Shown in pieces: positions 1 through 47,170 of a DNA stretch of 64,000 nt; position 1 is the stretch's first letter, and each line of letters opens with the position of its first letter. The stretch lies in IMG/VR virus record IMGVR_UViG_2651869695_000003; one strand, given 5' to 3'. The notes under the pieces are model-generated. The model was given only the letters and a program-made list of their open reading frames with translations, did not search any database and had not been told where the DNA came from. The stretch is from a virus (Duplodnaviria; Heunggongvirae; Uroviricota; Caudoviricetes). The position numbers and the translations under genes are program-made.

Positions 1-591
1 TCAATGGCAACGGATAACTGTGCCCGCTGGGTGTTGTCTGTTGTGCGTCGGGATCTCGGTTTTGATGATAGTCACGTTGTGACAATACCGGAACTGTGCT
101 GGTGGCTGATTCGTAATGACCTGGCGGATGCCTTACCGGAAAGTGCAGCCCGTAAGGCACTGAGATTACCGAAGCCTGTTGTGCAGGCGGTCACCCGGGA
201 AAGTGACCTTGTGCCTTCGGTTCCTGCCACCAGCATTATCCAGGATAAAGCGAAAAAGGTGCTGGCGCTGAAAGTGGATCCGGAGTCGCTGGAGTCTTTT
301 ATGTTACGCCCAAAACGCCGCCGCTGGGTTAATGAAAAGTACACGCGCTGGGTTAAGACACAGCCGTGTGCATGTTGTGGAAAGCCTGCTGATGATCCCC
401 ACCACCTGATAGGTCACGGTCAGGGTGGAATGGGTACAAAAGCGCATGACCTCTTTGTGTTGCCTTTGTGCAGAAAGCATCACGACGAGCTGCATGCGGA
501 TACCGTGGCATTTGAAGAGAAGTATGGCTCCCAACTGGAGCTGATATTTCGTTTTATCGATCGCGCGCTGGCGATTGGGGTGTTGGCCTGA
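1..591 (+). CDS. DUF968/YdfU-like prophage early-region protein, C-terminal part (5' end left of window)
   Basis: ORF open to window edge; identical to C-terminal ~196 aa of the full 331-aa copy at 46175..47170; Cys/His-rich C-terminus (CxxC...HH...H). Confidence 0.5.
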   Translation, partial: SMATDNCARWVLSVVRRDLGFDDSHVVTIPELCWWLIRNDLADALPESAARKALRLPKPVVQAVTRESDLVPSVPATSIIQDKAKKVLALKVDPESLESFMLRPKRRRWVNEKYTRWVKTQPCACCGKPADDPHHLIGHGQGGMGTKAHDLFVLPLCRKHHDELHADTVAFEEKYGSQLELIFRFIDRALAIGVLA

Positions 592-605
592 TTTGGTGGA
601 GAAAG

Positions 606-974
606 TTGATGCGTGATATTCAGATGGTTCTGGAGCGTTGGGGAGCATGGGCGGCGAGTGATAGTTCTGGAGTAGACTATTCGCCTATAGCTGCTGGGTT
701 TAAGGGGCTTCTTCCCTACACAAGCAAAACACGTCAGGCTTGTTCAGATAGTGATGCATTAATTATTGAAGGTTGTCTTGCTCGTCTAAAGCAAAAAAAG
801 CCAGATGAGCACTCGCTGCTTGTGGCACATTATTTATACAGAATATCCAAGCGTAAGATTGCAAAGGTGCGTGGAAAGGATGAAAAATTGGTACGCATAG
901 AAATACAACTAGCCGAAGGATTTATTGATGGTTGCCTTTCAATGTTGGATTTTAACCTTGAAATGGACGCTTAG
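606..974 (+). CDS. Late-gene antitermination protein Q (QuuD-like)
   Basis: N-terminus MRDIQMVLERWGAWAA... and C-terminal ...EGxxDGxLxMLDxxLEMD match my recollection of E. coli prophage Q antiterminators; position upstream of lysis genes. Confidence 0.7.
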   Translation: MMRDIQMVLERWGAWAASDSSGVDYSPIAAGFKGLLPYTSKTRQACSDSDALIIEGCLARLKQKKPDEHSLLVAHYLYRISKRKIAKVRGKDEKLVRIEIQLAEGFIDGCLSMLDFNLEMDA

Positions 975-980
975 GGTTGC

Positions 981-1010
981 ACAGGTTGGCCCCATATGAG
1001 GCCAACCTGT
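981..1010. other. 11-bp-stem hairpin between convergent Q and cassette membrane gene (possible bidirectional terminator)
   Basis: ACAGGTTGGCC-N8-GGCCAACCTGT read directly; no clear T-run. Confidence 0.3.
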
Positions 1011-1471
1011 CACAAGTGGGGGAAGATTTTTCGTAACACTAACCAACACCTTCCGAAGGTATATAGCGAAATTATAAGGGAGGATAAGCCTAACAGTATG
1101 AACAGGAAATCAATAGGTTTGCCCGCAACAATAACATCATCAGGTAGAAACATCGCTATCAATGGAAATATACATGCGACGATGAGAGTTAACCCTGTTG
1201 AAAGTAATCTATTTACCAGAGTTGGTAACACGTTGTTTTGCTTAAGGGCATTAATTGCTCCTTCCTTATCGCTGTTTGCACTACTAAATATAGATATTGC
1301 AGCCAGAACAAAACCAAACAGGATGCCTGATATAGTCGAGAGCACCCCCGCTGTTGTGAGTACGTCAGCATGCTTCATCGGTTTAAACAGTTTTGTCGCT
1401 GCATAGGTCAACAGAATCCAGAGGACGCATTTCCAGAGAAAAGTGGCTAATTCTCTCATTGTGTCCTCCAT
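1010..1471 (-). CDS. Four-TM small membrane protein (cassette gene 2), function unknown
   Basis: 153-aa ORF with four hydrophobic helices; AT-rich; directly downstream of 313-aa ORF on same strand, antisense to phage late operon. Confidence 0.55.
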   Translation of the reverse strand: MEDTMRELATFLWKCVLWILLTYAATKLFKPMKHADVLTTAGVLSTISGILFGFVLAAISIFSSANSDKEGAINALKQNNVLPTLVNRLLSTGLTLIVACIFPLIAMFLPDDVIVAGKPIDFLFILLGLSSLIISLYTFGRCWLVLRKIFPHL

Positions 1472-1480
1472 GCTTGGTTA

Positions 1481-2422
1481 TTAGTCTCTGCTAGCGAGCT
1501 CATACTGTGCAAGATAGTTCGCGTTATCAATTTTAGCAGATATCATCGCCGTTCTGATATCAGAATCGGATGGATAACCGCTTTTGACAATGATTGTCTT
1601 TGTACTGACCAATACTTGGTCAAGTAGACTTTTGGGCGTTCTATTGGATGGCTCTGTTACATCAATTTTTTTAATTTTTAGACCTCCAGAACCTTTTGGA
1701 AAAAGTTCAAGTAGTTCCTTAATAGCATCGGTGACAGAAGTTTTTAGATAGTTAAACCCTTGTTTTTTCGGGCGAATCCGACCTCGCATATTTAATCTTA
1801 GATGCGACCCGCCCATACCAACAACCATGTCAATAATTTCATTAGCTAAAGGGTTTTTAATCTTATAATTAGCTTTGTTAAAGTTTCTTGGAGCAGCAAC
1901 TATAAGATCGAAACTACGTAGGATATTTCCGTCCTCAAGCAGTTCCTTCATGCTCTCTTGTTTCCAAATGGCTTCAAAAGTGACGCTTTTTAAATCAGTT
2001 TTGTTATACAAAATGAATGCCAGATCATTTACTTTGGGCCCTATATGGTTGAGGGTCATAGCTAATAAGTCCGTTTCGTAGTAATAGATAAAATATGTTC
2101 TTTCAACTACAGAATCTTTATCATTTAAAGGAATTGTTCTCTCACTACCTGTAGCATCCTCGATGAACGGTAGTAGGCATTCCCTTCTCCACGATACGTA
2201 ACCAAAGTAACATTGCAGTGTGGTATCTTTTTGAAGAATAACTAACTTTAACCCTCGACTTGGGGTGTCTGTTGTGTAAGTTATTGGAAAAGTTACAGTA
2301 TCTGCTGTGGTCATTTGCTCAAAGGCTAGTTTTGCAGCAGATGTGCCATATTTTTTGCTTCCATTACCAGTGAAAAAACCAACTCTCACTCGCCTGGTTT
2401 TATTCTTATTTTCTGTACTCAT
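1481..2422 (-). CDS. Hypothetical 313-aa cytoplasmic protein (cassette gene 1), candidate defence/exclusion factor
   Basis: Long AT-rich ORF, no recognised motif by eye; located in Q-to-lysis moron hotspot. Confidence 0.55.
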   Translation of the reverse strand: MSTENKNKTRRVRVGFFTGNGSKKYGTSAAKLAFEQMTTADTVTFPITYTTDTPSRGLKLVILQKDTTLQCYFGYVSWRRECLLPFIEDATGSERTIPLNDKDSVVERTYFIYYYETDLLAMTLNHIGPKVNDLAFILYNKTDLKSVTFEAIWKQESMKELLEDGNILRSFDLIVAAPRNFNKANYKIKNPLANEIIDMVVGMGGSHLRLNMRGRIRPKKQGFNYLKTSVTDAIKELLELFPKGSGGLKIKKIDVTEPSNRTPKSLLDQVLVSTKTIIVKSGYPSDSDIRTAMISAKIDNANYLAQYELASRD

Positions 2423-2544
2423 TATCGATCCGAAATAATTTTAGCAACCGTGTGAAAAATACAACAAAAAAAAGAGGAAATCATTAGCGCGGTCCGCAAA
2501 AAACATTGTAATCTGTTAAGAGTGGTTACTTCGCCACACAGCTT

Positions 2545-2575
2545 AAACCCGCCGTCGAGCGGGTTTTGTCGTTTC
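2545..2575 (+). terminator. Rho-independent terminator (tR'-like) upstream of holin
   Basis: AAACCCGC-CGTCGA-GCGGGTTT hairpin followed by TGTCGTTTCT. Confidence 0.5.
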
Positions 2576-2718
2576 TGTGGCTGGGGATTCGTTGGTCCTG
2601 GCCTATTCCGCAGTTCTCCATCGGTTCGGCTTCTTTGATGTTTCCGCTTCTGATTTGCGGTACATGATGTTCCCTCAATTTGCACCTGCTGTATCAGCGA
2701 GGTGAGAGATAACTACAA

Positions 2719-3045
2719 ATGCCTCATAACCCAAATACCTGGCTGGAGTTGGTCCAGAGCTGGTGGCGTGGAGACACACCGCTGGGCGCAGTGATTATGT
2801 CGATCGTTATGGCTGGCTTGCGCATTGCCTATTTTGGCGGTGGTGGTGGCTGGAAACGAAAAACGCTCGAGATTTTGCTCTGTGGTGCTCTGACGCTGAC
2901 TTTTGCATCCGCTCTTGAGTATGTCGGATGGCCTAAATCTCTTTCTGTTGCCATTGGTGGCGGCGTTGGGCTGATCGGGGTCGATGCTATTCGTGGGGCT
3001 GCAATGAGAGTAATCGGTAATAAGTTTGGTGGCTCTAAGGAGTAA
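2719..3045 (+). CDS. Holin, lambda S-like
   Basis: 108 aa, hydrophobic helices, charged C-terminus, immediately upstream of endolysin; pattern resembles lambda S. Confidence 0.7.
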   Translation: MPHNPNTWLELVQSWWRGDTPLGAVIMSIVMAGLRIAYFGGGGGWKRKTLEILLCGALTLTFASALEYVGWPKSLSVAIGGGVGLIGVDAIRGAAMRVIGNKFGGSKE

Positions 3046-3048
3046 TTT

Positions 3049-3531
3049 ATGCAGGTACTAAATTCCCAGCGTAAAGCTTTCCTCGATATGGTGGCATGGT
3101 CAGAAGGAACGGATAACGGGCGACAACCGACACGTAACCACGGTTATGACGTTATTGTCGGAGGTGAACTGTTCACTGATTACTCCGATCACCCTCGCAA
3201 ACTTGTCACGCTAAACCCGAAACTTAAATCAACAGCCGCAGGACGTTATCAGCTTCTTTCACGCTGGTGGGATGCTTACCGTAAGCAGCTTGGGCTGAAA
3301 GACTTCTCTCCAAAAAGCCAGGATGCTGTGGCATTGCAGCAGATTAAAGAGCGTGGTGCTTTACCGATGATTGATCGCGGCGATATCCGTCAGGCTATTG
3401 ATCGTTGCAGCAATATCTGGGCGTCATTGCCGGGCGCTGGTTATGGTCAGTTCGAACATAAGGTTGACAGCCTGATTGAAAAATTCAAAGAATCGGGCGG
3501 AACGGTCAGAGAAATTCAGCTATATGAGTAG
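3049..3531 (+). CDS. R: Endolysin, lambda R-type lytic transglycosylase
   Basis: Translation near-identical to lambda R as I recall it ([21 protein letters not shown]...[24 protein letters not shown]...). Confidence 0.85.
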
Positions 3532-3988
3532 AGTAACTGCGATTCTGTCCTCTCTGGTTATCTGCACCATCGTCTGCCTATCATGGGCTGTTAATCATTA
3601 TCGTGATAACGCCATCGCCTACAAAGAACAGCGCGATAAAGCGAAGGAAAAACTCAGCCAGGCGAACGCCACCATTACTGAGATGCAGCAGCGCCAGCGT
3701 GATGTTTCTGCGCTCGATGCGAAATACACCGGAGAACTTGCAAATGCTAAAGCAACTATTGAACAGCTTCAGCGTGATGTTGCTGTTGGCACTAAGCGGC
3801 TGTTCCTCGCCGCTAGTTGCCCGAGAGTGCAATCAACGACCATTACCACCAGCCTGGATGATGCTACCGCCCCCCGACTTACTGACACCGCTCAACGGGA
3901 TTATTTCACCCTCAGAGAGAGAATTGAAATCAGTTATAAACAGATAAGAGCATTGCAGGACTATATCTCTAGTCAGTGTGAAAAATAA
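3524..3988 (+). CDS. Rz: i-spanin Rz
   Basis: Start ATG overlaps R stop (ATGAGTAG); MSRVTAI...[15 protein letters not shown] matches lambda Rz N-terminus; ORF track start 3476 is an upstream extension. Confidence 0.8.
3744..3947 (+). CDS. Rz1: o-spanin Rz1 lipoprotein, embedded in Rz in +1 frame
   Basis: Signal peptide ending ...LLALSGC then [27 protein letters not shown], matching lambda Rz1 proline-rich motif; taken from internal Met of 114-aa ORF. Confidence 0.75.
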
Positions 3989-4069
3989 AATTGCTTTCGA
4001 TGTATGGATCTGGACATCTTTTTTTTCTACTATGCTGACTGAGAATTGAAACGTATATGGATATTCTAT

Positions 4070-4828
4070 ATGAAAAGAAAAAAATTAGAAGGTCCCGGGT
4101 GTGAATCATATGAAGGGTTAGATGTTGAATATTATATTGATTCCGAAACGGGGGAATTTAAAGCGGTTTATACATTCAATAATGAAATTGTAGATCGCAT
4201 AAAATTGAGTGGGCGTATTGCCGATAGAGCATCTTCACTGTCCCTAATTCATAGGGACTTAAAAAGTGCTAAAGAGTGGTACCAAATAGCTAATGAACTG
4301 GCAGGGAGAAACGAATTAAGGACAGATGGCAAGTTATACGGGAATATACTTGATCTAGATTTATCAAGTGAAATTAGAGCGTTATTTGTGGCAAGCCTAA
4401 CGTTTTATGGTAAAGCTTTCTCTGAAGCTAAAGGGAGAAAGTTAAAGATGGAGCGTGATTGGCTTGATTCTGAATATTTTGGGTTGCATGACTGTATTAT
4501 TAACTACAGGCATAATTTTGCAGCACATAGCGGCAACCAAGACTATGAGTCAGCAGAAACTTCATTGTTACTAATAAGGAAAAATGGGAAAACATTTTAT
4601 CAAGCAGTGACAGATAGAAAACAACTGAGCATGATTGGTGTCGAGGACGAGCATGTTGATATGATTAATTTATTTGAACATGCGATACAGGTTGTTGAGA
4701 AAAAATATAATGAAACATTAGAGAGAATTAGAACCTATGTCATGCAAAAGAGTTATTCTTTTTGGTGTTTAGCTGCCACAGGGAAAGATCCCGTCAATTT
4801 AGATAAGTTAAATAAGAAGAAAAAATAA
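4070..4828 (+). CDS. Hypothetical AT-rich moron protein between Rz and HNH
   Basis: 252-aa ORF from first ATG (ORF track starts at TTG 4046); low GC versus neighbours; no recognisable domain. Confidence 0.45.
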   Translation: MKRKKLEGPGCESYEGLDVEYYIDSETGEFKAVYTFNNEIVDRIKLSGRIADRASSLSLIHRDLKSAKEWYQIANELAGRNELRTDGKLYGNILDLDLSSEIRALFVASLTFYGKAFSEAKGRKLKMERDWLDSEYFGLHDCIINYRHNFAAHSGNQDYESAETSLLLIRKNGKTFYQAVTDRKQLSMIGVEDEHVDMINLFEHAIQVVEKKYNETLERIRTYVMQKSYSFWCLAATGKDPVNLDKLNKKKK

Positions 4829-4907
4829 ACCTACTCTTCACATTAGTAACATTAGTAGATGCTAAGCCACTAGCAATCGATGGTGGCTTTTTTATTGGAG
4901 CTTACCA

Positions 4908-5258
4908 ATGCCACCACGAACCCCAAAAGCCTGCCGTGTTCGCGGCTGCCGCTCTACAACCACAGACCCGTCAGGCTACTGCGAAAGCCACAAAAGCGAA
5001 GGCTGGAAGCAATACAAGCCAGGTCAGTCCCGTCATCAGCGCGGTTATGGTTCGAAGTGGGACGCTATCCGCGCGCGTGTGCTGAAGCGTGACAAAGGTT
5101 TATGTCAGTTATGTCTGCGTGCCGGTGTGGTGCGTGAGGCGAAAACCGTTGACCACATCATCCCTAAAGCGCATGGCGGCACTGATGCCGACTGTAATCT
5201 GCAGAGTCTGTGTTGGCCGTGTCATAAGGCGAAGACGGCCCGTGAACGGTTAAAGTGA
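4908..5258 (+). CDS. HNH endonuclease (terminase-associated)
   Basis: CxxC ... DHIIPKAHGGTD ... CWPCH motifs; position immediately upstream of terminase small subunit as in HK97-like phages. Confidence 0.75.
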   Translation: MPPRTPKACRVRGCRSTTTDPSGYCESHKSEGWKQYKPGQSRHQRGYGSKWDAIRARVLKRDKGLCQLCLRAGVVREAKTVDHIIPKAHGGTDADCNLQSLCWPCHKAKTARERLK

Positions 5259-5284
5259 TAATAACTCTCAACTGTCTGAGGGGA

Positions 5285-5344
5285 GGGGCGGGTCACATCC
5301 CTGTGACCTGACGTCTTCCGGACTGCCCGCCCCATCGTTTTTTT
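5285..5344. other. GC-rich nested palindrome plus T-run between HNH and terS (candidate cos/packaging region or terminator)
   Basis: GGGGCGGG...GGTCACA-TCCC-TGTGACC...CCCGCCCC then TTTTTTT. Confidence 0.3.
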
Positions 5345-5374
5345 ATACCCGCGAAAAATGAAATTTAACCAGGA

Positions 5375-5878
5375 GTGCCGCATATGGCTGGAACGACGGG
5401 GCGTTCCGGGCGTCGCCCCAAGCCAACGGCGCGCAAGGCGCTGGCCGGAAATCCCGGCAAGCGAGCCCTGAACAAAGATGAACCTGTTTTTACGCCCATC
5501 AAAGGTGTTGAGCCACCGGAGTGGTTCGCTGAAGAAGATCTCCCTCTCGCCACGATCATGTGGCAACTGACAACCAAAGAACTCTGCGGTCAGGGCCTGC
5601 TGTGCGTGACTGACCTCGCGGTGCTTGAGCGGTGGTGCGTGGCCTACGAGTTCTGGCGACGTGCCGTGAAAAATATTGCCAGACAGGGCAACACCATCAC
5701 CGGTGCAATGGGCGGTATGGTCAAAAATCCGGAGCTGACCGCCAAAAAAGAACAGGAGTCCGAGATGAGCAGTACGGGGGCAATGCTCGGACTCGACCCC
5801 AGCAGCCGCCAGCGTCTGATTGGCCTGGCGGGGAAGAAGAAAGCCACTAACCCGTTTCTGAAAATCATCGAATCATGA
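5375..5878 (+). CDS. Terminase small subunit
   Basis: 167-aa basic ORF between HNH and large terminase, translationally coupled to next gene. Confidence 0.7.
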
Positions 5879-7608
5879 GCCGGAAATCTTACCCCAACGT
5901 AAATGCTGCCAATCAGTATGCCCGGGATGTCGTGCGCGGAAAGATTGTGGCCTGCCAGTTTGTGATTCAGGCCTGCCAGCGCCATCTTGATGACCTGATG
6001 GCGGAAAAAAGTAAGTCGTTTCGTTACCGCTTCGACAAGGACCTGGCTGAACGGGCCGCCAAATTTATTCAGCTGTTGCCGCACACCAAGGGTGAGTGGG
6101 CATTCAAGAGGATGCCCATCACGCTGGAGCCGTGGCAGCTCTTTGTGATCTGCTGCGCGTTTGGCTGGGTCAATAAAGGCTCCCGGCTGCGCCGCTTCAG
6201 GGAGGTGTATACCGAAATCCCCCGTAAGAACGGCAAATCGGCAATCTCTGCCGGTGTCGCTCTGTATTGTTTTGCCTGTGATAACGAGTTCGGCGCGGAA
6301 GTGTATTCCGGTGCCACGACGGAGAAACAGGCATGGGAAGTCTTTCGCCCGGCGCGACTGATGTGTAAACGCACACCAATGCTGACGGAAGCGTTCGGGA
6401 TTGAGGTTAACGCCTCAAACATGAACCGTCCGGAGGATGGCGCGCGGTTTGAACCGCTGATCGGTAACCCCGGTGATGGTTCATCACCCCACTGTGCGGT
6501 GGTGGATGAATATCACGAGCACGCCACCGATGCGCTTTACACCACGATGCTTACCGGGATGGGGGCGCGACGTCAGCCACTGATGTGGGCCATTACTACT
6601 GCCGGGTACAACATTGAGGGGCCGTGCTACGACAAGCGGCGGGAAGTTATCGAGATGCTCAACGGGTCGGTGCCTAACGATGAACTGTTCGGGATCATCT
6701 ATACCGTTGATGAAGGTGACGACTGGACCGACCCGCAGGTGCTGGAAAAAGCCAATCCAAATATTGGCGTGTCGGTTTATCGCGAATTTTTGTTAAGTCA
6801 GCAACAGCGTGCGAAAAATAACGCCCGTCTGGCAAACGTCTTTAAAACAAAACACCTCAATATCTGGGTGTCGGCGCGTTCGGCGTATTTCAACCTGGTG
6901 AGCTGGCAGAGCTGCGAGGATAAATCACTGACCCTTGAGCAGTTCGAGGGGCAGCCGTGCATTCTGGCCTTTGACTTGGCGCGTAAACTGGATATGAACA
7001 GCATGGCGCGACTTTATACCCGCGAGATTGACGGTAAAACGCATTACTACAGTGTGGCCCCGCGTTTCTGGGTACCGTATGACACGGTGTACAGCGTCGA
7101 GAAAAATGAAGATCGACGGACAGCCGAACGCTTTCAGAAATGGGTGGAAATGGGCGTTCTGACCGTTACCGATGGTGCGGAAGTGGATTATCGCTACATC
7201 CTCGAGGAGGCCAAAGCGGCGAACAAAATCAGCCCGGTCAGTGAGTCACCCATCGACCCCTTCGGGGCGACCGGGCTGTCACATGACCTTGCTGATGAAG
7301 ACCTGAACCCCATCACTATCATTCAGAACTACACCAACATGTCCGATCCGATGAAAGAGCTGGAAGCGGCAATTGAATCGGGGCGCTTTCATCATGATGG
7401 CAATCCCATCATGACCTGGTGTATCGGCAACGTGGTCGGCAAAACCATTCCGGGTAACGATGATGTGGTGAAGCCCGTCAAAGAGCAGGCGGAAAACAAA
7501 ATCGATGGTGCAGTTGCGCTGATTATGGCGGTTGGCAGAGCCATGCTGTACGAGAAAGAAGACACGCTGTCTGACCACATTGAGTCCTATGGGATCCGCT
7601 CGCTTTAA
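5875..7608 (+). CDS. Terminase large subunit
   Basis: 577 aa; ATPase and nuclease regions typical of TerL (VVDEYHE ... [10 protein letters not shown]). Confidence 0.9.
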
Positions 7609-7619
7609 CTGAGGTAATT

Positions 7620-7802
7620 ATGATCATGCTGATTCTCGCGCCTCTGGTGGGCGTGCTGGGGGCGCTTTTGCTGGCGTATGGTGCCTGGCTGATTTATCCC
7701 CCGGCGGGGTTTGTTGTTGCCGGGGCGTTGTGTCTGTTCTGGTCGTGGCTGGTGGCGCGATATCTCGACCGTACACAGTCGTCTGTCGGCGGAGGTAAAT
7801 AG
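7620..7802 (+). CDS. Small hydrophobic protein
   Basis: 60-aa ORF with two predicted TM helices between terL and portal. Confidence 0.35.
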
Positions 7803-9043
7803 TGTTCTTTTCGGGATTATTTCAACGAAAAAGTGACGCACCAGTGACCACGCCAGCAGAGCTGGCGGATGCTATCGGGTTGTCCTACGACACCTATATC
7901 GGAAAGCAGATCAGCAGCCAGCGGGCCATGCGACTGACGGCGGTTTTTTCCTGCGTCAGGGTGCTGGCAGAGTCGGTCGGGATGTTGCCCTGCAATCTGT
8001 ATCACCTGAACGGCAGCCTGAAAAAGAGAGCCACCGGCGAGCGTCTGCATAAGCTGATCTCCACGCATCCCAATGGCTATATGACGCCGCAGGAGTTCTG
8101 GGAGCTGGTGGTCACCTGTCTGTGCTTGCGGGGAAACTTTTACGCCTACAAAGTGAAAGGATTTGGCGAAGTGGCTGAACTGCTGCCCGTCGATCCCGGC
8201 TGTGTGGTACCGAAGCTTAACAGTAGCTGGGAGCCGGTCTATCAGGTCACATTCCCGGACGGCTCCACGGATGTACTGAGCCAGGAAGATATCTGGCATG
8301 TGCGCACGCTGACGCTGGACGGTCTGGTGGGACTGAATCCCATCGCCTATGCCCGCGAGGCAATATCGCTGGCAGCTGCGACCGAAGAGCACGGGGCCAG
8401 ACTGTTCAGCAATGGTGCGGTGACGTCCGGTGTGTTGCGTACAGAGCAGACGCTGTCGGATCAGGCTTATGAGCGCCTGAAGAAAGATTTTGAGGAGCGT
8501 CACACCGGGCTTGGCAATGCTCACCGCCCGATGATCCTTGAGATGGGGCTGGACTGGAAGTCGATGGCGCTGAACGCCGAGGACAGCCAGTTCCTGGAAA
8601 CCCGCAAGTTTCAGCTTGAAGAAATCTGTCGTCTGTTCCGGGTGCCATTGCACATGGTGCAGAACACCGATCGCGCCACCTTCAACAATATCGAAGAGCT
8701 GGGGCTGGGATTTATCAACTATTCACTGGTGCCGTATCTGACCCGCATTGAGCAGCGGATCAACACCGGACTGGTACGAAAAAGTAAGCAGGGCGTTTAT
8801 TACGCCAAATTTAACGCCGGGGCGTTACTGCGCGGGGATATGAAGTCCCGTTTTGAAGCCTACGCCACCGGTATCAACTGGGGAATTTACTCTCCCAATG
8901 ACTGCCGCGACCTGGAAGATATGAATCCGCGTCCCGGTGGGGATGTCTATCTCACGCCGATGAATATGACCACGAAACCCTCCGATGGCAGTAAAGCCGG
9001 TAAGCAGAAGGATAACGCCAATGCAGACGAAACAACGTCTTGA
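7802..9043 (+). CDS. Portal protein (HK97-like)
   Basis: 413 aa, gene order after TerL. Confidence 0.85.
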   Translation: MFFSGLFQRKSDAPVTTPAELADAIGLSYDTYIGKQISSQRAMRLTAVFSCVRVLAESVGMLPCNLYHLNGSLKKRATGERLHKLISTHPNGYMTPQEFWELVVTCLCLRGNFYAYKVKGFGEVAELLPVDPGCVVPKLNSSWEPVYQVTFPDGSTDVLSQEDIWHVRTLTLDGLVGLNPIAYAREAISLAAATEEHGARLFSNGAVTSGVLRTEQTLSDQAYERLKKDFEERHTGLGNAHRPMILEMGLDWKSMALNAEDSQFLETRKFQLEEICRLFRVPLHMVQNTDRATFNNIEELGLGFINYSLVPYLTRIEQRINTGLVRKSKQGVYYAKFNAGALLRGDMKSRFEAYATGINWGIYSPNDCRDLEDMNPRPGGDVYLTPMNMTTKPSDGSKAGKQKDNANADETTS

Positions 9044-9671: not shown

Positions 9672-9685
9672 TCAGGAGAAATACG

Positions 9686-10891: not shown

Positions 10892-10898
10892 TCACTCA

Positions 10899-10918
10899 GG
10901 GGCGCGGAACCGCGCCCC
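10899..10918 (+). terminator. Stable hairpin downstream of capsid gene
   Basis: GGGGCGCG-GAAC-CGCGCCCC; weak T tract. Confidence 0.35.
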
Positions 10919-10940
10919 CTGTTCTGACGGGTGAAGAATC

Positions 10941-11141: not shown

Positions 11142-11143
11142 GT

Positions 11144-35825: not shown

Positions 35826-35874
35826 GATTCTTCACCCGTCAGAACAGGGGGCGCGGTTCCGCGCCCCTGAGTGA

Positions 35875-37080: not shown

Positions 37081-37094
37081 CGTATTTCTCCTGA

Positions 37095-37745: not shown

Positions 37746-38964
37746 TGGCGTTATCCTTCTGCTTACCGGCTTTACTGCCATCGGAGGGTTTCGTGGTCAT
37801 ATTCATCGGCGTGAGATAGACATCCCCACCGGGACGCGGATTCATATCTTCCAGGTCGCGGCAGTCATTGGGAGAGTAAATTCCCCAGTTGATACCGGTG
37901 GCGTAGGCTTCAAAACGGGACTTCATATCCCCGCGCAGTAACGCCCCGGCGTTAAATTTGGCGTAATAAACGCCCTGCTTACTTTTTCGTACCAGTCCGG
38001 TGTTGATCCGCTGCTCAATGCGGGTCAGATACGGCACCAGTGAATAGTTGATAAATCCCAGCCCCAGCTCTTCGATATTGTTGAAGGTGGCGCGATCGGT
38101 GTTCTGCACCATGTGCAATGGCACCCGGAACAGACGACAGATTTCTTCAAGCTGAAACTTGCGGGTTTCCAGGAACTGGCTGTCCTCGGCGTTCAGCGCC
38201 ATCGACTTCCAGTCCAGCCCCATCTCAAGGATCATCGGGCGGTGAGCATTGCCAAGCCCGGTGTGACGCTCCTCAAAATCTTTCTTCAGGCGCTCATAAG
38301 CCTGATCCGACAGCGTCTGCTCTGTACGCAACACACCGGACGTCACCGCACCATTGCTGAACAGTCTGGCCCCGTGCTCTTCGGTCGCAGCTGCCAGCGA
38401 TATTGCCTCGCGGGCATAGGCGATGGGATTCAGTCCCACCAGACCGTCCAGCGTCAGCGTGCGCACATGCCAGATATCTTCCTGGCTCAGTACATCCGTG
38501 GAGCCGTCCGGGAATGTGACCTGATAGACCGGCTCCCAGCTACTGTTAAGCTTCGGTACCACACAGCCGGGATCGACGGGCAGCAGTTCAGCCACTTCGC
38601 CAAATCCTTTCACTTTGTAGGCGTAAAAGTTTCCCCGCAAGCACAGACAGGTGACCACCAGCTCCCAGAACTCCTGCGGCGTCATATAGCCATTGGGATG
38701 CGTGGAGATCAGCTTATGCAGACGCTCGCCGGTGGCTCTCTTTTTCAGGCTGCCGTTCAGGTGATACAGATTGCAGGGCAACATCCCGACCGACTCTGCC
38801 AGCACCCTGACGCAGGAAAAAACCGCCGTCAGTCGCATGGCCCGCTGGCTGCTGATCTGCTTTCCGATATAGGTGTCGTAGGACAACCCGATAGCATCCG
38901 CCAGCTCTGCTGGCGTGGTCACTGGTGCGTCACTTTTTCGTTGAAATAATCCCGAAAAGAACAC
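37723..38964 (-). CDS. Portal protein (copy 2)
   Basis: Identical inverted copy of 7802..9043. Confidence 0.85.
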   Translation of the reverse strand: MFFSGLFQRKSDAPVTTPAELADAIGLSYDTYIGKQISSQRAMRLTAVFSCVRVLAESVGMLPCNLYHLNGSLKKRATGERLHKLISTHPNGYMTPQEFWELVVTCLCLRGNFYAYKVKGFGEVAELLPVDPGCVVPKLNSSWEPVYQVTFPDGSTDVLSQEDIWHVRTLTLDGLVGLNPIAYAREAISLAAATEEHGARLFSNGAVTSGVLRTEQTLSDQAYERLKKDFEERHTGLGNAHRPMILEMGLDWKSMALNAEDSQFLETRKFQLEEICRLFRVPLHMVQNTDRATFNNIEELGLGFINYSLVPYLTRIEQRINTGLVRKSKQGVYYAKFNAGALLRGDMKSRFEAYATGINWGIYSPNDCRDLEDMNPRPGGDVYLTPMNMTTKPSDGSKAGKQKDNANADETTS

Positions 38965-39146
38965 TATTTACCTCCGCCGACAGACGACTGTGTACGGTCG
39001 AGATATCGCGCCACCAGCCACGACCAGAACAGACACAACGCCCCGGCAACAACAAACCCCGCCGGGGGATAAATCAGCCAGGCACCATACGCCAGCAAAA
39101 GCGCCCCCAGCACGCCCACCAGAGGCGCGAGAATCAGCATGATCAT
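38964..39146 (-). CDS. Small hydrophobic protein (copy 2)
   Basis: Identical inverted copy of 7620..7802. Confidence 0.35.
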
Positions 39147-39157
39147 AATTACCTCAG

Positions 39158-40891
39158 TTAAAGCGAGCGGATCCCATAGGACTCAATGTGGTCAGACAGC
39201 GTGTCTTCTTTCTCGTACAGCATGGCTCTGCCAACCGCCATAATCAGCGCAACTGCACCATCGATTTTGTTTTCCGCCTGCTCTTTGACGGGCTTCACCA
39301 CATCATCGTTACCCGGAATGGTTTTGCCGACCACGTTGCCGATACACCAGGTCATGATGGGATTGCCATCATGATGAAAGCGCCCCGATTCAATTGCCGC
39401 TTCCAGCTCTTTCATCGGATCGGACATGTTGGTGTAGTTCTGAATGATAGTGATGGGGTTCAGGTCTTCATCAGCAAGGTCATGTGACAGCCCGGTCGCC
39501 CCGAAGGGGTCGATGGGTGACTCACTGACCGGGCTGATTTTGTTCGCCGCTTTGGCCTCCTCGAGGATGTAGCGATAATCCACTTCCGCACCATCGGTAA
39601 CGGTCAGAACGCCCATTTCCACCCATTTCTGAAAGCGTTCGGCTGTCCGTCGATCTTCATTTTTCTCGACGCTGTACACCGTGTCATACGGTACCCAGAA
39701 ACGCGGGGCCACACTGTAGTAATGCGTTTTACCGTCAATCTCGCGGGTATAAAGTCGCGCCATGCTGTTCATATCCAGTTTACGCGCCAAGTCAAAGGCC
39801 AGAATGCACGGCTGCCCCTCGAACTGCTCAAGGGTCAGTGATTTATCCTCGCAGCTCTGCCAGCTCACCAGGTTGAAATACGCCGAACGCGCCGACACCC
39901 AGATATTGAGGTGTTTTGTTTTAAAGACGTTTGCCAGACGGGCGTTATTTTTCGCACGCTGTTGCTGACTTAACAAAAATTCGCGATAAACCGACACGCC
40001 AATATTTGGATTGGCTTTTTCCAGCACCTGCGGGTCGGTCCAGTCGTCACCTTCATCAACGGTATAGATGATCCCGAACAGTTCATCGTTAGGCACCGAC
40101 CCGTTGAGCATCTCGATAACTTCCCGCCGCTTGTCGTAGCACGGCCCCTCAATGTTGTACCCGGCAGTAGTAATGGCCCACATCAGTGGCTGACGTCGCG
40201 CCCCCATCCCGGTAAGCATCGTGGTGTAAAGCGCATCGGTGGCGTGCTCGTGATATTCATCCACCACCGCACAGTGGGGTGATGAACCATCACCGGGGTT
40301 ACCGATCAGCGGTTCAAACCGCGCGCCATCCTCCGGACGGTTCATGTTTGAGGCGTTAACCTCAATCCCGAACGCTTCCGTCAGCATTGGTGTGCGTTTA
40401 CACATCAGTCGCGCCGGGCGAAAGACTTCCCATGCCTGTTTCTCCGTCGTGGCACCGGAATACACTTCCGCGCCGAACTCGTTATCACAGGCAAAACAAT
40501 ACAGAGCGACACCGGCAGAGATTGCCGATTTGCCGTTCTTACGGGGGATTTCGGTATACACCTCCCTGAAGCGGCGCAGCCGGGAGCCTTTATTGACCCA
40601 GCCAAACGCGCAGCAGATCACAAAGAGCTGCCACGGCTCCAGCGTGATGGGCATCCTCTTGAATGCCCACTCACCCTTGGTGTGCGGCAACAGCTGAATA
40701 AATTTGGCGGCCCGTTCAGCCAGGTCCTTGTCGAAGCGGTAACGAAACGACTTACTTTTTTCCGCCATCAGGTCATCAAGATGGCGCTGGCAGGCCTGAA
40801 TCACAAACTGGCAGGCCACAATCTTTCCGCGCACGACATCCCGGGCATACTGATTGGCAGCATTTACGTTGGGGTAAGATTTCCGGCTCAT
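39158..40891 (-). CDS. Terminase large subunit (copy 2)
   Basis: Identical inverted copy of 5875..7608. Confidence 0.9.
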
Positions 40892-41391
40892 GATTCGATG
40901 ATTTTCAGAAACGGGTTAGTGGCTTTCTTCTTCCCCGCCAGGCCAATCAGACGCTGGCGGCTGCTGGGGTCGAGTCCGAGCATTGCCCCCGTACTGCTCA
41001 TCTCGGACTCCTGTTCTTTTTTGGCGGTCAGCTCCGGATTTTTGACCATACCGCCCATTGCACCGGTGATGGTGTTGCCCTGTCTGGCAATATTTTTCAC
41101 GGCACGTCGCCAGAACTCGTAGGCCACGCACCACCGCTCAAGCACCGCGAGGTCAGTCACGCACAGCAGGCCCTGACCGCAGAGTTCTTTGGTTGTCAGT
41201 TGCCACATGATCGTGGCGAGAGGGAGATCTTCTTCAGCGAACCACTCCGGTGGCTCAACACCTTTGATGGGCGTAAAAACAGGTTCATCTTTGTTCAGGG
41301 CTCGCTTGCCGGGATTTCCGGCCAGCGCCTTGCGCGCCGTTGGCTTGGGGCGACGCCCGGAACGCCCCGTCGTTCCAGCCATATGCGGCAC
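40888..41391 (-). CDS. Terminase small subunit (copy 2)
   Basis: Identical inverted copy of 5375..5878. Confidence 0.7.
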
Positions 41392-41421
41392 TCCTGGTTA
41401 AATTTCATTTTTCGCGGGTAT

Positions 41422-41481
41422 AAAAAAACGATGGGGCGGGCAGTCCGGAAGACGTCAGGTCACAGGGATGTGACCCGCCCC
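41422..41481. other. GC-rich nested palindrome / candidate cos region (copy 2)
   Basis: Inverted copy of 5285..5344. Confidence 0.3.
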
Positions 41482-41507
41482 TCCCCTCAGACAGTTGAGA
41501 GTTATTA

Positions 41508-41858
41508 TCACTTTAACCGTTCACGGGCCGTCTTCGCCTTATGACACGGCCAACACAGACTCTGCAGATTACAGTCGGCATCAGTGCCGCCATGCGCTTT
41601 AGGGATGATGTGGTCAACGGTTTTCGCCTCACGCACCACACCGGCACGCAGACATAACTGACATAAACCTTTGTCACGCTTCAGCACACGCGCGCGGATA
41701 GCGTCCCACTTCGAACCATAACCGCGCTGATGACGGGACTGACCTGGCTTGTATTGCTTCCAGCCTTCGCTTTTGTGGCTTTCGCAGTAGCCTGACGGGT
41801 CTGTGGTTGTAGAGCGGCAGCCGCGAACACGGCAGGCTTTTGGGGTTCGTGGTGGCAT
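41508..41858 (-). CDS. HNH endonuclease (copy 2)
   Basis: Identical inverted copy of 4908..5258. Confidence 0.75.
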   Translation of the reverse strand: MPPRTPKACRVRGCRSTTTDPSGYCESHKSEGWKQYKPGQSRHQRGYGSKWDAIRARVLKRDKGLCQLCLRAGVVREAKTVDHIIPKAHGGTDADCNLQSLCWPCHKAKTARERLK

Positions 41859-41937
41859 TGGTAAGCTCCAATAAAAAAGCCACCATCGATTGCTAGTGGC
41901 TTAGCATCTACTAATGTTACTAATGTGAAGAGTAGGT

Positions 41938-42696
41938 TTATTTTTTCTTCTTATTTAACTTATCTAAATTGACGGGATCTTTCCCTGTGGCAGCTAAACA
42001 CCAAAAAGAATAACTCTTTTGCATGACATAGGTTCTAATTCTCTCTAATGTTTCATTATATTTTTTCTCAACAACCTGTATCGCATGTTCAAATAAATTA
42101 ATCATATCAACATGCTCGTCCTCGACACCAATCATGCTCAGTTGTTTTCTATCTGTCACTGCTTGATAAAATGTTTTCCCATTTTTCCTTATTAGTAACA
42201 ATGAAGTTTCTGCTGACTCATAGTCTTGGTTGCCGCTATGTGCTGCAAAATTATGCCTGTAGTTAATAATACAGTCATGCAACCCAAAATATTCAGAATC
42301 AAGCCAATCACGCTCCATCTTTAACTTTCTCCCTTTAGCTTCAGAGAAAGCTTTACCATAAAACGTTAGGCTTGCCACAAATAACGCTCTAATTTCACTT
42401 GATAAATCTAGATCAAGTATATTCCCGTATAACTTGCCATCTGTCCTTAATTCGTTTCTCCCTGCCAGTTCATTAGCTATTTGGTACCACTCTTTAGCAC
42501 TTTTTAAGTCCCTATGAATTAGGGACAGTGAAGATGCTCTATCGGCAATACGCCCACTCAATTTTATGCGATCTACAATTTCATTATTGAATGTATAAAC
42601 CGCTTTAAATTCCCCCGTTTCGGAATCAATATAATATTCAACATCTAACCCTTCATATGATTCACACCCGGGACCTTCTAATTTTTTTCTTTTCAT
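41938..42696 (-). CDS. Hypothetical AT-rich moron protein (copy 2)
   Basis: Identical inverted copy of 4070..4828. Confidence 0.45.
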   Translation of the reverse strand: MKRKKLEGPGCESYEGLDVEYYIDSETGEFKAVYTFNNEIVDRIKLSGRIADRASSLSLIHRDLKSAKEWYQIANELAGRNELRTDGKLYGNILDLDLSSEIRALFVASLTFYGKAFSEAKGRKLKMERDWLDSEYFGLHDCIINYRHNFAAHSGNQDYESAETSLLLIRKNGKTFYQAVTDRKQLSMIGVEDEHVDMINLFEHAIQVVEKKYNETLERIRTYVMQKSYSFWCLAATGKDPVNLDKLNKKKK

Positions 42697-42777
42697 ATAG
42701 AATATCCATATACGTTTCAATTCTCAGTCAGCATAGTAGAAAAAAAAGATGTCCAGATCCATACATCGAAAGCAATT

Positions 42778-43242
42778 TTATTTTTCACACTGACTAGAGA
42801 TATAGTCCTGCAATGCTCTTATCTGTTTATAACTGATTTCAATTCTCTCTCTGAGGGTGAAATAATCCCGTTGAGCGGTGTCAGTAAGTCGGGGGGCGGT
42901 AGCATCATCCAGGCTGGTGGTAATGGTCGTTGATTGCACTCTCGGGCAACTAGCGGCGAGGAACAGCCGCTTAGTGCCAACAGCAACATCACGCTGAAGC
43001 TGTTCAATAGTTGCTTTAGCATTTGCAAGTTCTCCGGTGTATTTCGCATCGAGCGCAGAAACATCACGCTGGCGCTGCTGCATCTCAGTAATGGTGGCGT
43101 TCGCCTGGCTGAGTTTTTCCTTCGCTTTATCGCGCTGTTCTTTGTAGGCGATGGCGTTATCACGATAATGATTAACAGCCCATGATAGGCAGACGATGGT
43201 GCAGATAACCAGAGAGGACAGAATCGCAGTTACTCTACTCAT
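42778..43242 (-). CDS. Rz: i-spanin Rz (copy 2)
   Basis: Identical inverted copy of 3524..3988. Confidence 0.8.
42819..43022 (-). CDS. Rz1: o-spanin Rz1 (copy 2)
   Basis: Identical inverted copy of 3744..3947. Confidence 0.75.
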
Positions 43243-43717
43243 ATAGCTGAATTTCTCTGACCGTTCCGCCCGATTCTTTGAATTTTTCAATCAGGCTGTC
43301 AACCTTATGTTCGAACTGACCATAACCAGCGCCCGGCAATGACGCCCAGATATTGCTGCAACGATCAATAGCCTGACGGATATCGCCGCGATCAATCATC
43401 GGTAAAGCACCACGCTCTTTAATCTGCTGCAATGCCACAGCATCCTGGCTTTTTGGAGAGAAGTCTTTCAGCCCAAGCTGCTTACGGTAAGCATCCCACC
43501 AGCGTGAAAGAAGCTGATAACGTCCTGCGGCTGTTGATTTAAGTTTCGGGTTTAGCGTGACAAGTTTGCGAGGGTGATCGGAGTAATCAGTGAACAGTTC
43601 ACCTCCGACAATAACGTCATAACCGTGGTTACGTGTCGGTTGTCGCCCGTTATCCGTTCCTTCTGACCATGCCACCATATCGAGGAAAGCTTTACGCTGG
43701 GAATTTAGTACCTGCAT
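43235..43717 (-). CDS. R: Endolysin, lambda R-type (copy 2)
   Basis: Identical inverted copy of 3049..3531. Confidence 0.85.
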
Positions 43718-43720
43718 AAA

Positions 43721-44047
43721 TTACTCCTTAGAGCCACCAAACTTATTACCGATTACTCTCATTGCAGCCCCACGAATAGCATCGACCCCGATCAGCCCAA
43801 CGCCGCCACCAATGGCAACAGAAAGAGATTTAGGCCATCCGACATACTCAAGAGCGGATGCAAAAGTCAGCGTCAGAGCACCACAGAGCAAAATCTCGAG
43901 CGTTTTTCGTTTCCAGCCACCACCACCGCCAAAATAGGCAATGCGCAAGCCAGCCATAACGATCGACATAATCACTGCGCCCAGCGGTGTGTCTCCACGC
44001 CACCAGCTCTGGACCAACTCCAGCCAGGTATTTGGGTTATGAGGCAT
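43721..44047 (-). CDS. Holin (copy 2)
   Basis: Identical inverted copy of 2719..3045. Confidence 0.7.
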   Translation of the reverse strand: MPHNPNTWLELVQSWWRGDTPLGAVIMSIVMAGLRIAYFGGGGGWKRKTLEILLCGALTLTFASALEYVGWPKSLSVAIGGGVGLIGVDAIRGAAMRVIGNKFGGSKE

Positions 44048-44190
44048 TTGTAGTTATCTCTCACCTCGCTGATACAGCAGGTGCAAATTGAGGGAACATC
44101 ATGTACCGCAAATCAGAAGCGGAAACATCAAAGAAGCCGAACCGATGGAGAACTGCGGAATAGGCCAGGACCAACGAATCCCCAGCCACA

Positions 44191-44221
44191 GAAACGACAA
44201 AACCCGCTCGACGGCGGGTTT
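44191..44221 (-). terminator. tR'-like rho-independent terminator (copy 2)
   Basis: Inverted copy of 2545..2575. Confidence 0.5.
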
Positions 44222-44343
44222 AAGCTGTGTGGCGAAGTAACCACTCTTAACAGATTACAATGTTTTTTGCGGACCGCGCTAATGATTTCCTCTTTTTTTT
44301 GTTGTATTTTTCACACGGTTGCTAAAATTATTTCGGATCGATA

Positions 44344-45285
44344 ATGAGTACAGAAAATAAGAATAAAACCAGGCGAGTGAGAGTTGGTTTTTTCACTGGT
44401 AATGGAAGCAAAAAATATGGCACATCTGCTGCAAAACTAGCCTTTGAGCAAATGACCACAGCAGATACTGTAACTTTTCCAATAACTTACACAACAGACA
44501 CCCCAAGTCGAGGGTTAAAGTTAGTTATTCTTCAAAAAGATACCACACTGCAATGTTACTTTGGTTACGTATCGTGGAGAAGGGAATGCCTACTACCGTT
44601 CATCGAGGATGCTACAGGTAGTGAGAGAACAATTCCTTTAAATGATAAAGATTCTGTAGTTGAAAGAACATATTTTATCTATTACTACGAAACGGACTTA
44701 TTAGCTATGACCCTCAACCATATAGGGCCCAAAGTAAATGATCTGGCATTCATTTTGTATAACAAAACTGATTTAAAAAGCGTCACTTTTGAAGCCATTT
44801 GGAAACAAGAGAGCATGAAGGAACTGCTTGAGGACGGAAATATCCTACGTAGTTTCGATCTTATAGTTGCTGCTCCAAGAAACTTTAACAAAGCTAATTA
44901 TAAGATTAAAAACCCTTTAGCTAATGAAATTATTGACATGGTTGTTGGTATGGGCGGGTCGCATCTAAGATTAAATATGCGAGGTCGGATTCGCCCGAAA
45001 AAACAAGGGTTTAACTATCTAAAAACTTCTGTCACCGATGCTATTAAGGAACTACTTGAACTTTTTCCAAAAGGTTCTGGAGGTCTAAAAATTAAAAAAA
45101 TTGATGTAACAGAGCCATCCAATAGAACGCCCAAAAGTCTACTTGACCAAGTATTGGTCAGTACAAAGACAATCATTGTCAAAAGCGGTTATCCATCCGA
45201 TTCTGATATCAGAACGGCGATGATATCTGCTAAAATTGATAACGCGAACTATCTTGCACAGTATGAGCTCGCTAGCAGAGACTAA
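44344..45285 (+). CDS. Hypothetical 313-aa cassette protein (copy 2)
   Basis: Identical inverted copy of 1481..2422; here in context of the complete prophage. Confidence 0.55.
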   Translation: MSTENKNKTRRVRVGFFTGNGSKKYGTSAAKLAFEQMTTADTVTFPITYTTDTPSRGLKLVILQKDTTLQCYFGYVSWRRECLLPFIEDATGSERTIPLNDKDSVVERTYFIYYYETDLLAMTLNHIGPKVNDLAFILYNKTDLKSVTFEAIWKQESMKELLEDGNILRSFDLIVAAPRNFNKANYKIKNPLANEIIDMVVGMGGSHLRLNMRGRIRPKKQGFNYLKTSVTDAIKELLELFPKGSGGLKIKKIDVTEPSNRTPKSLLDQVLVSTKTIIVKSGYPSDSDIRTAMISAKIDNANYLAQYELASRD

Positions 45286-45294
45286 TAACCAAGC

Positions 45295-45756
45295 ATGGAG
45301 GACACAATGAGAGAATTAGCCACTTTTCTCTGGAAATGCGTCCTCTGGATTCTGTTGACCTATGCAGCGACAAAACTGTTTAAACCGATGAAGCATGCTG
45401 ACGTACTCACAACAGCGGGGGTGCTCTCGACTATATCAGGCATCCTGTTTGGTTTTGTTCTGGCTGCAATATCTATATTTAGTAGTGCAAACAGCGATAA
45501 GGAAGGAGCAATTAATGCCCTTAAGCAAAACAACGTGTTACCAACTCTGGTAAATAGATTACTTTCAACAGGGTTAACTCTCATCGTCGCATGTATATTT
45601 CCATTGATAGCGATGTTTCTACCTGATGATGTTATTGTTGCGGGCAAACCTATTGATTTCCTGTTCATACTGTTAGGCTTATCCTCCCTTATAATTTCGC
45701 TATATACCTTCGGAAGGTGTTGGTTAGTGTTACGAAAAATCTTCCCCCACTTGTGA
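45295..45756 (+). CDS. Four-TM membrane protein (cassette gene 2, copy 2)
   Basis: Identical inverted copy of 1010..1471. Confidence 0.55.
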   Translation: MEDTMRELATFLWKCVLWILLTYAATKLFKPMKHADVLTTAGVLSTISGILFGFVLAAISIFSSANSDKEGAINALKQNNVLPTLVNRLLSTGLTLIVACIFPLIAMFLPDDVIVAGKPIDFLFILLGLSSLIISLYTFGRCWLVLRKIFPHL

Positions 45757-45791
45757 CAGGTTGGCCTCATATGGGGCCAACCTGTGCAACC

Positions 45792-46160
45792 CTAAGCGTC
45801 CATTTCAAGGTTAAAATCCAACATTGAAAGGCAACCATCAATAAATCCTTCGGCTAGTTGTATTTCTATGCGTACCAATTTTTCATCCTTTCCACGCACC
45901 TTTGCAATCTTACGCTTGGATATTCTGTATAAATAATGTGCCACAAGCAGCGAGTGCTCATCTGGCTTTTTTTGCTTTAGACGAGCAAGACAACCTTCAA
46001 TAATTAATGCATCACTATCTGAACAAGCCTGACGTGTTTTGCTTGTGTAGGGAAGAAGCCCCTTAAACCCAGCAGCTATAGGCGAATAGTCTACTCCAGA
46101 ACTATCACTCGCCGCCCATGCTCCCCAACGCTCCAGAACCATCTGAATATCACGCATCAA
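45792..46160 (-). CDS. Antitermination protein Q (copy 2)
   Basis: Identical inverted copy of 606..974. Confidence 0.7.
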   Translation of the reverse strand: MMRDIQMVLERWGAWAASDSSGVDYSPIAAGFKGLLPYTSKTRQACSDSDALIIEGCLARLKQKKPDEHSLLVAHYLYRISKRKIAKVRGKDEKLVRIEIQLAEGFIDGCLSMLDFNLEMDA

Positions 46161-46174
46161 CTTTCTCCACCAAA

Positions 46175-47170
46175 TCAGGCCAACACCCCAATCGCCAGCG
46201 CGCGATCGATAAAACGAAATATCAGCTCCAGTTGGGAGCCATACTTCTCTTCAAATGCCACGGTATCCGCATGCAGCTCGTCGTGATGCTTTCTGCACAA
46301 AGGCAACACAAAGAGGTCATGCGCTTTTGTACCCATTCCACCCTGACCGTGACCTATCAGGTGGTGGGGATCATCAGCAGGCTTTCCACAACATGCACAC
46401 GGCTGTGTCTTAACCCAGCGCGTGTACTTTTCATTAACCCAGCGGCGGCGTTTTGGGCGTAACATAAAAGACTCCAGCGACTCCGGATCCACTTTCAGCG
46501 CCAGCACCTTTTTCGCTTTATCCTGGATAATGCTGGTGGCAGGAACCGAAGGCACAAGGTCACTTTCCCGGGTGACCGCCTGCACAACAGGCTTCGGTAA
46601 TCTCAGTGCCTTACGGGCTGCACTTTCCGGTAAGGCATCCGCCAGGTCATTACGAATCAGCCACCAGCACAGTTCCGGTATTGTCACAACGTGACTATCA
46701 TCAAAACCGAGATCCCGACGCACAACAGACAACACCCAGCGGGCACAGTTATCCGTTGCCATTGATTCCAGCCGTTCCGTGAACTGATCGCGCAGCTGGT
46801 TATCGCAGTGCCAGCACAAACGGATTGCGCCCGGAGCGTGTCGCATTGTTGTCATGTTCTCGCTGTGCCAGTCGGAATGAGGCCACTGGCAGCCTTTTTC
46901 ACGAAGTAACCAGCTTTCAAGACATTCCACGCCACCAGCACGACGGATCACTGCCTCATTGCGGAATACGGCCCGAACGGCAGGATCATCCGCCAGCGGT
47001 TGTGATGCCGCCGGAACGGCACCACTGGCGAAAGATGAATAACGTTCCGGCTCAGGCTCCAGCAGGACACGCCCCTGCATAAACAGGGGCATCAACTCTG
47101 AACCTGGCCTGAACAATACGATCCCCATACGCGGGGCAATTTCAGGGGTCAGTAGTGCTCTCACGGTCAC
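46175..47170 (-). CDS. DUF968/YdfU-like prophage protein, full length (331 aa)
   Basis: C-terminal 196 aa duplicated at 1..591; Cys/His-rich C-terminus. Confidence 0.5.
   Translation of the reverse strand: MTVRALLTPEIAPRMGIVLFRPGSELMPLFMQGRVLLEPEPERYSSFASGAVPAASQPLADDPAVRAVFRNEAVIRRAGGVECLESWLLREKGCQWPHSDWHSENMTTMRHAPGAIRLCWHCDNQLRDQFTERLESMATDNCARWVLSVVRRDLGFDDSHVVTIPELCWWLIRNDLADALPESAARKALRLPKPVVQAVTRESDLVPSVPATSIIQDKAKKVLALKVDPESLESFMLRPKRRRWVNEKYTRWVKTQPCACCGKPADDPHHLIGHGQGGMGTKAHDLFVLPLCRKHHDELHADTVAFEEKYGSQLELIFRFIDRALAIGVLA

Follow-up and report, generated by a model that had tools for sequence, protein, structure and literature searches.

Does the Escherichia coli strain behind the virus record IMGVR_UViG_2651869695_000003 carry the late region of a prophage twice, as two perfect inverted copies placed around a tail fibre switch, or does the duplication belong to the record? 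The stretch analysed here (the window, 64,000 nucleotides, assigned to the Caudoviricetes) is 1..64000 of the 64,025-bp contig JHST01000046.1 from the draft E. coli assembly GCA_001266115.1, with coinciding gene coordinates, and that assembly is a multi-contig draft of at least 46 contigs. A perfect inverted duplication is present in the record and most likely not in the bacterium. With high probability the palindrome is an assembly fold-back at an invertible segment and not a feature of the genome, a view for which the case is strong although it stops short of a demonstration. The real biology of the locus, an SfV-like prophage at ssrA with an ordinary invertible fibre segment of the Pin type, is well known already.

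The structure itself is clear. Positions 1..22539 are the exact reverse complement of 24227..46765, with no mismatch in 22,539 bp when base i is set against base 46766-i at all positions, and the match between the arms breaks off at 22540/24226 to leave a 1687-bp centre that is not self-complementary. The GC skew reverses its sign at the centre, as a palindrome predicts, and a perfect inverted repeat of 22.5 kb cannot have arisen by chance. The sequence-only reading of the window, which proposed a perfect inverted duplication of at least 22.5 kb with its inner limit at 22539/24227, is thus borne out base by base, and the palindromic part takes up 46.8 of the 64 kb. The same reading had the left arm cut by the edge of the window. 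It is cut there, but the cut is also the end of the source contig, the left arm starting at base 1 of JHST01000046.1 and showing zero divergence from the right arm over its 22,539 bp. Because the left arm is truncated by the end of the source contig, the outer limit at 46765 is no boundary in the biological sense, and lies within the gene for an early-region DUF968 protein of the prophage (46175..47164).

The place at which the two arms turn is a site-specific inversion system. Both boundaries of the centre lie at 26-bp crossover sites which are exact copies of pixL, published as TTCTCCCAAACC AA GGTTTTCGAGAG alongside pixR as TTCTCCCAAACC AA CGTTTATGAAAA (PMC3241671, Table 3), the full pixR sequence being TTCTCCCAAACCAACGTTTATGAAAA. 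The arms reach the centre 2 bp inside these pixL sites, which are in inverted orientation and have imperfect dyad symmetry around a central AA, with half-sites agreeing at 9 of 12 positions. That both boundaries are exact pixL ties the fold-back to the inversion system and not to a random chimera. A site search found pixR to be absent from the window and no further crossover site within it at up to 6 mismatches, and tblastn with PinE found no invertase in the window (best E = 4.7). Taken literally the deposited contig is an inversion system without its enzyme. The natural locus has a 16-bp exact inverted repeat, GCTTCTCCCAAACCAA, around the 1.7-kb segment, and this repeat differs at one base (15 of 16 matching) from that of the e14 P segment, CCTTCTCCCAAACCAA (PMC12529663). 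The centre belongs to the Pin/P-segment type of fibre switch, alongside Mu G, P1 C and e14 P.

The two fibre proteins encoded across the junctions, of 327 and 220 amino acids (aa), have their first ~101 aa in common and diverge at the pix site, the constant part lying outside the segment. The 327-aa fibre scores above the curated cut-off for PF21722 and matches tail-fibre PHROGs, and the exact protein is known from one further contig. The exact 220-aa fibre was found on only six contigs, among them those of two independent sister assemblies, GCA_021537415.1 (L132) and GCA_050992835.1 (L133). The accompanying genes lie on opposite strands, the Caudo_TAP gene going with the 220-aa fibre and an 87-aa open reading frame (ORF) with the 327-aa fibre. 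This 87-aa ORF always travels with the cassette, and weak Caudo_TAP and phrog_3792 matches at the C-terminus of its product make it a possible small assembly chaperone. Homologous genes in relatives carry the RefSeq names ymfQ, stfP, tfaE and pinE.

How the same prophage looks elsewhere is seen in the sister strains. L132 is identical to window 34531..22524 over 12,008 bp, a run which takes in the right arm and the entire centre and extends through the inner half-site of the left pix. L132 leaves the window sequence inside the outer half-site and there has an exact pixR, TTCTCCCAAACC AA CGTTTATGAAAA, at the pin-proximal end of the segment. Beyond pixR come a Resolvase/HTH_7 protein (Pin), an LEM-3-type GIY-YIG protein, a Dcm-like methylase and an EcoRII-like endonuclease, then the tmRNA gene, and beyond that smpB, ratA, rnfH, bamE and recN. 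L133 has the L132 layout with 3 mismatches to the window over 12 kb, and in both the 184-aa Resolvase/HTH_7 protein begins ~60 bp past the pin-proximal site. The 70.7-kb contig ABZJVI010000018.1 contains the entire prophage in one copy; over the 10,863 bp that align collinearly with window 47417..58279 it differs at 5 positions. Single-copy layout with no arm-centre-arm structure is found in L132, L133 and L157. The collinearity of sister contigs with the right arm (L132) and with the early region (ABZJVI010000018.1) shows that the right arm and its continuation are authentic. The left arm is most likely the spurious copy, and by the same comparison it occupies the place of the ~4.8-kb pin-side end. 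Since the att core beyond the integrase repeats the last 36 bp of ssrA, the natural element is a ~40.5-kb prophage inserted in that gene.

Finished genomes give the base rate for such a structure. Among 5,426 complete E. coli genomes searched with a 4.8-kb arm-centre-arm query, 2,636 gave matches, at 6,241 places, and at no place was 80% or more of the query covered. None of the best-ranked places spanned both arms, and a palindrome with a different centre would rank in the first five. In E. coli NZ_LR882050 and NZ_CP060083 the centre is 97.9% identical, with pinE as its immediate neighbour and then a GIY-YIG gene, the two genomes having the centre in opposite orientations relative to the fibre and pinE. 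Each of the ten long contigs listed has the resolvase on one side and fibre and baseplate on the other, with the resolvase adjoining the glycine-rich end in 6 and the other end in 4. Both orientations of the e14 segment are present together in cultures from single colonies (PMC4272514).

Assemblies of such DNA leave traces at the same points. In 554 of the 1,040 public-assembly blocks that index the 87-aa gene, the longest carrying contig is under 2 kb, and so assemblers very often isolate the ~1.7-kb segment alone, which is the signature of a graph branch at both pix sites. At the other end of the arm, the first 60 bases of the window, used as an exact 60-mer, have more than 120 matches in IMG/VR, which shows the contig-end sequence to be a very common lambdoid module. 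The same 60-mer has two same-strand copies in a Shigella flexneri chromosome, differing just downstream, and other short-read assemblies of the cargo region break nearby, at window 46223..46516 (L128 to L130). Palindromic contigs are a recognised error of short-read assembly, with 81 in one SPAdes study (PMC9455707).

A path to the deposited contig can be put together as follows. The strain would have one ~40.5-kb SfV-like prophage in ssrA with the order X-pixL-S-pixR-Y, in which X runs from int as far as the constant part of the fibre gene, S is the segment and Y runs from pin to ecoRII. Flipping of the segment by Pin would make the culture a mixture of both orientations, which we infer for this strain and which has been shown for e14, and reads would thus join the fibre constant part to either segment end. 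The other state, X-pixL-S'-pixR-Y, read backwards is Y'-pixR-S-pixL-X', and would have S in a common orientation with X-pixL-S-pixR-Y. An assembler or contig merger, we infer, might then enter S from X and exit on the branch of the other molecule, to give X-pixL-S-pixL-X'. The left junction would be state A, with the 327-aa fibre, and the right junction state B, with the 220-aa fibre. The returning arm would stop at the next ambiguity, the contig end lying ~580 bp inside a DUF968 module common to many lambdoid prophages, and ~4.8 kb with pixR, pin, the GIY-YIG gene, dcm, ecoRII and the ssrA-side att would be omitted from the contig.

That the turning point is an invertible segment accounts for an error at this place. 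The fold-back through an invertible segment was one of two explanations offered from the letters of the window, and pixL at both ends of the centre, an arm that runs to the contig end and the lack of any finished genome with the structure all support it. The accompanying claim that the contig skips the invertase and att is supported as well, with no PinE homologue in the window and with sister prophages carrying pixR and the stretch from pin to ssrA where the left arm begins. The record has further traits of palindromic ('hairpin') contigs, namely identical reverse-complementary halves, a duplicated half that reaches the contig terminus and absence from independent assemblies and from finished genomes. 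Unlike the usual hairpin contig, the palindrome here is partial, and its turning point is a real invertible segment and not a bare hairpin.

Four points weigh against the fold-back. The artefact is not demonstrated directly, the case being made by sequence comparison and not from reads. Exact-protein look-ups with the EcoRII-like, DUF968 and 87-aa proteins matched other assemblies only, and so brought to light neither the pin-side end nor a counterpart palindrome on a second contig of GCA_001266115.1. The junction sequences are uninformative, in that a real Pin exchange would yield the same sequence: as pixL and pixR share the inner half-site and core, the junctions cannot separate Pin recombination from an assembler's walk. 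Finally, palindrome biology and the action of SbcCD are such that a 1.7-kb spacer would make the inverted repeat tolerable in vivo, and so a viable strain is no argument against a real structure. All routes to a real palindrome share their junction sequence with the artefact, which means that sequence alone cannot separate them, and the weight falls on where the structure occurs and how it ends.

The best placed of the rivals is a genuine palindromic dimer, in which a tandem double lysogen at ssrA would have gone through a single Pin inversion, with pixR of the first copy and pixL of the second as its crossover sites. The two sites would be inverted and ~39 kb apart with the pin gene between them, and with it the Fis-dependent recombinational enhancer that genes for Din-family invertases have in their 5' part. 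Inversion of one phage-length interval would give X-pixL-segment-pixL-X' together with a second palindrome, Y'-pixR-segment-pixR-Y, in a viable chromosome. The junctions are exactly as exchange at the central AA gives, the outer half-sites remaining with their flanks, and zero divergence of the arms fits a very recent event. Such a route would need known Din-family properties only, although no result favours it over the artefact. Against it stand the count of 0 arm-centre-arm structures in the 2,636 complete E. coli genomes with the fibre region and two sister assemblies in which this prophage is normal and single-copy. The second arm stops at the contig end, leaving its embedding in a chromosome unsupported, and neither an attP junction nor a second palindrome nor a pin gene is visible in the window. 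Further, a draft assembler would be unable to resolve two identical 22.5-kb arms unless long reads were used. The genuine palindromic prophage dimer that the sequence-only reading offered as its alternative is on these grounds (none in complete genomes, single-copy sisters, an arm that ends with the contig) improbable, without being refuted. Were it true, a head-to-head prophage dimer would express both fibre variants at once from its two arms, and a Din invertase would be seen to rearrange prophage-sized intervals in a natural isolate.

A further artefact, one with no connection to inversion, would be a chimeric hairpin read or library molecule, formed for instance through a missing SMRTbell adapter, multiple displacement amplification or ligation fold-back. 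Hairpin chimeras are a known source of palindromic contigs. Contigs of this type have been reported as assembly errors (PMC9455707). A hairpin of chimeric origin is expected to be symmetric about a random point, whereas the 1687-bp centre here is asymmetric and ends on two pixL sites to the base, a coincidence that chance would not be expected to produce. A random chimeric hairpin read was for this reason rejected as the cause, and an unrelated artefact of the wider class is very unlikely.

Replication snap-back or template switching at the 16-bp repeat GCTTCTCCCAAACCAA, which would make the visible junction the first of the tandem-inversion-duplication (TID) type, is the most doubtful of the three. 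The exact inverted repeat does flank the 1.7-kb segment in the natural locus, and synthesis primed from a hairpin at this repeat would run back through the fibre gene and could give the observed junction, TID formation being the known basis for such a proposal. However, a 16-bp stem that closes a 1.7-kb loop makes a poor substrate for snap-back, the contig shows no second junction, the base rate in finished genomes is zero and the sister strains are normal, all of which leaves this route with scarcely any probability. Pin recombination between sister chromosomes was rejected, as it would be expected to give an inverted whole-chromosome dimer, which is not heritable.

If the fold-back at the invertible segment is taken as the cause, the consequences are mainly ones of quality control. 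JHST01000046.1 very probably has a 22.5-kb spurious inverted duplication and is without the true prophage end. Counts of genes, prophages or 'accessory' content made from this contig would include ~30 phage genes twice and overlook the invertase. A rule for scanning other records follows the same lines: a perfect inverted repeat with its inner ends on invertase crossover sites and its outer end at a contig end points to DNA from a mixed-orientation culture and not to a rearrangement. The features on which the argument draws are collected below.

Table. Features of the palindrome, its centre and the single-copy remainder of the prophage (window coordinates)
Feature	Position	Strand	Description
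Left arm	1..22539	+	Reverse-complement copy of 24227..46765: Q, cargo, lysis, head, tail, baseplate, fibre constant part
Fibre gene, 'A' state, 327 aa	22235..23218	+	~101-aa constant N-terminus and glycine-rich C-terminus
Crossover site 1, 26 bp	22512..22537	-	TTCTCCCAAACC AA GGTTTTCGAGAG, exact published pixL
Centre, invertible P-type segment	22540..24226	no strand	1687 bp; two alternative fibre C-termini
87-aa ORF after glycine-rich fibre end	23218..23481	+	Possible small assembly chaperone
Tail-fibre assembly protein, 139 aa	23453..23872	-	PF02413 (Caudo_TAP), E = 2.6e-23; phrog_188; serves the alternative fibre end
Fibre gene, 'B' state, 220 aa	23869..24531	-	Shared constant N-terminus and gp53-like C-terminus
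Right arm	24227..46765	-	Late region of SfV/SfII-like temperate myovirus, continuous with early region
Crossover site 2, 26 bp	24229..24254	+	TTCTCCCAAACC AA GGTTTTCGAGAG, again exact pixL, where the natural phage has pixR
Remaining prophage, single copy	46766..58280	-	DUF968, KilA-N, RusA, repressor/cro region, integrase, 272-aa ORF, att core
Integrase	56202..57377	+	
att core, 36 bp	58245..58280		Copy of ssrA 3' end, past integrase and 272-aa ORF

Among known inversion systems the closest is the e14 P segment with Pin, a member of the Din family whose relatives are Mu G/Gin, P1 C/Cin, Salmonella H/Hin and p15B Min. The crossover sites in the window are pixL of that system, and the sister strains have its pixR also. 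The e14 P segment is 1797 bp and that here ~1.7 kb, and both have two opposed fibre C-termini with tfa-type genes and a constant N-terminus outside the segment. Unlike the e14 system the contig is without an invertase gene and without pixR, and has a second pixL and a second phage copy there instead. The host elements differ as well, e14 being a defective element in icd whereas the one here is a complete ~40-kb SfV-like prophage in ssrA, and unlike in e14 one fibre end here is a glycine-rich domain. The entry ON470584.1, 'Escherichia phage vB_EcoM-689R6, partial genome', contains icd, mnmA, hflD and other host genes, and was rejected as an isolated-phage reference; with these host genes it is a prophage region at the e14 attachment site and not a virion genome.

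The identical cassette of 87-aa ORF, 139-aa Tfa and resolvase is found on three baseplate/fibre architectures (L159..L168), of the Mu Gp48 type, the P2 Tail_P2_I / Phage_tail_fib type and the Phage_Wedge1 type. Its presence on three baseplate types shows that the whole switch is exchanged horizontally between myovirus lineages.

The body of the phage combines an HK97-type head module with a Mu-like contractile tail, as mapped with Pfam. Over ~17 kb the arm's genes for head, tail and baseplate are 97-98% identical to those of the Shigella/Escherichia temperate myoviruses SfV, SfII, SfI and SfIV. The matches to these phages cover only ~17.2 kb at the start of the arm query, and the part for lysis, cargo and Q is thus not shared. 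A two-gene cargo locus on the opposite strand (44344..45756, mirror 1010..2422) separates the Q antiterminator from the holin; its GC content is ~0.41 against ~0.55 for the phage, and it is conserved in many relatives of the prophage. Its 313-aa protein (gene 44344..45285) has no Pfam match and belongs to phrog_7651, of unknown function, and its 153-aa protein has a weak DUF4064 match and belongs to phrog_8552, likewise of unknown function. An HNH endonuclease gene (41508..41858, mirror 4908..5258) is immediately upstream of the small terminase subunit, a pairing that is usual for HK97-like packaging modules.

At the ssrA-proximal end of the sister prophage the LEM-3-like GIY-YIG, Dcm-like methylase and EcoRII-like enzyme form a module adjoining ssrA (L132 12687..16549). 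The same three genes lie beside ssrA/smpB in L145 together with a very different, lambda-like tail (gpJ, Stf, Lom), and so the module seems to stay with the ssrA-proximal end while phage bodies are exchanged. In the early region most relatives (L135..L144) have a Dam methylase gene (PF05869, 217 aa) that separates the PerC-like gene from the LexA_DNA_bind-like one; in the window (48375..49195) and in the sister strains Dam is missing from this place and the LexA-like gene comes immediately after the PerC-like one. Just beyond the att core is an IS21 element (IstB 58607..59341, IstA 59342..60406), and the integrase of the adjoining island is in three fragments (60465..60782, 61066..61407 and 61432..61677), at the position where the sister strains have an intact 409-aa integrase.

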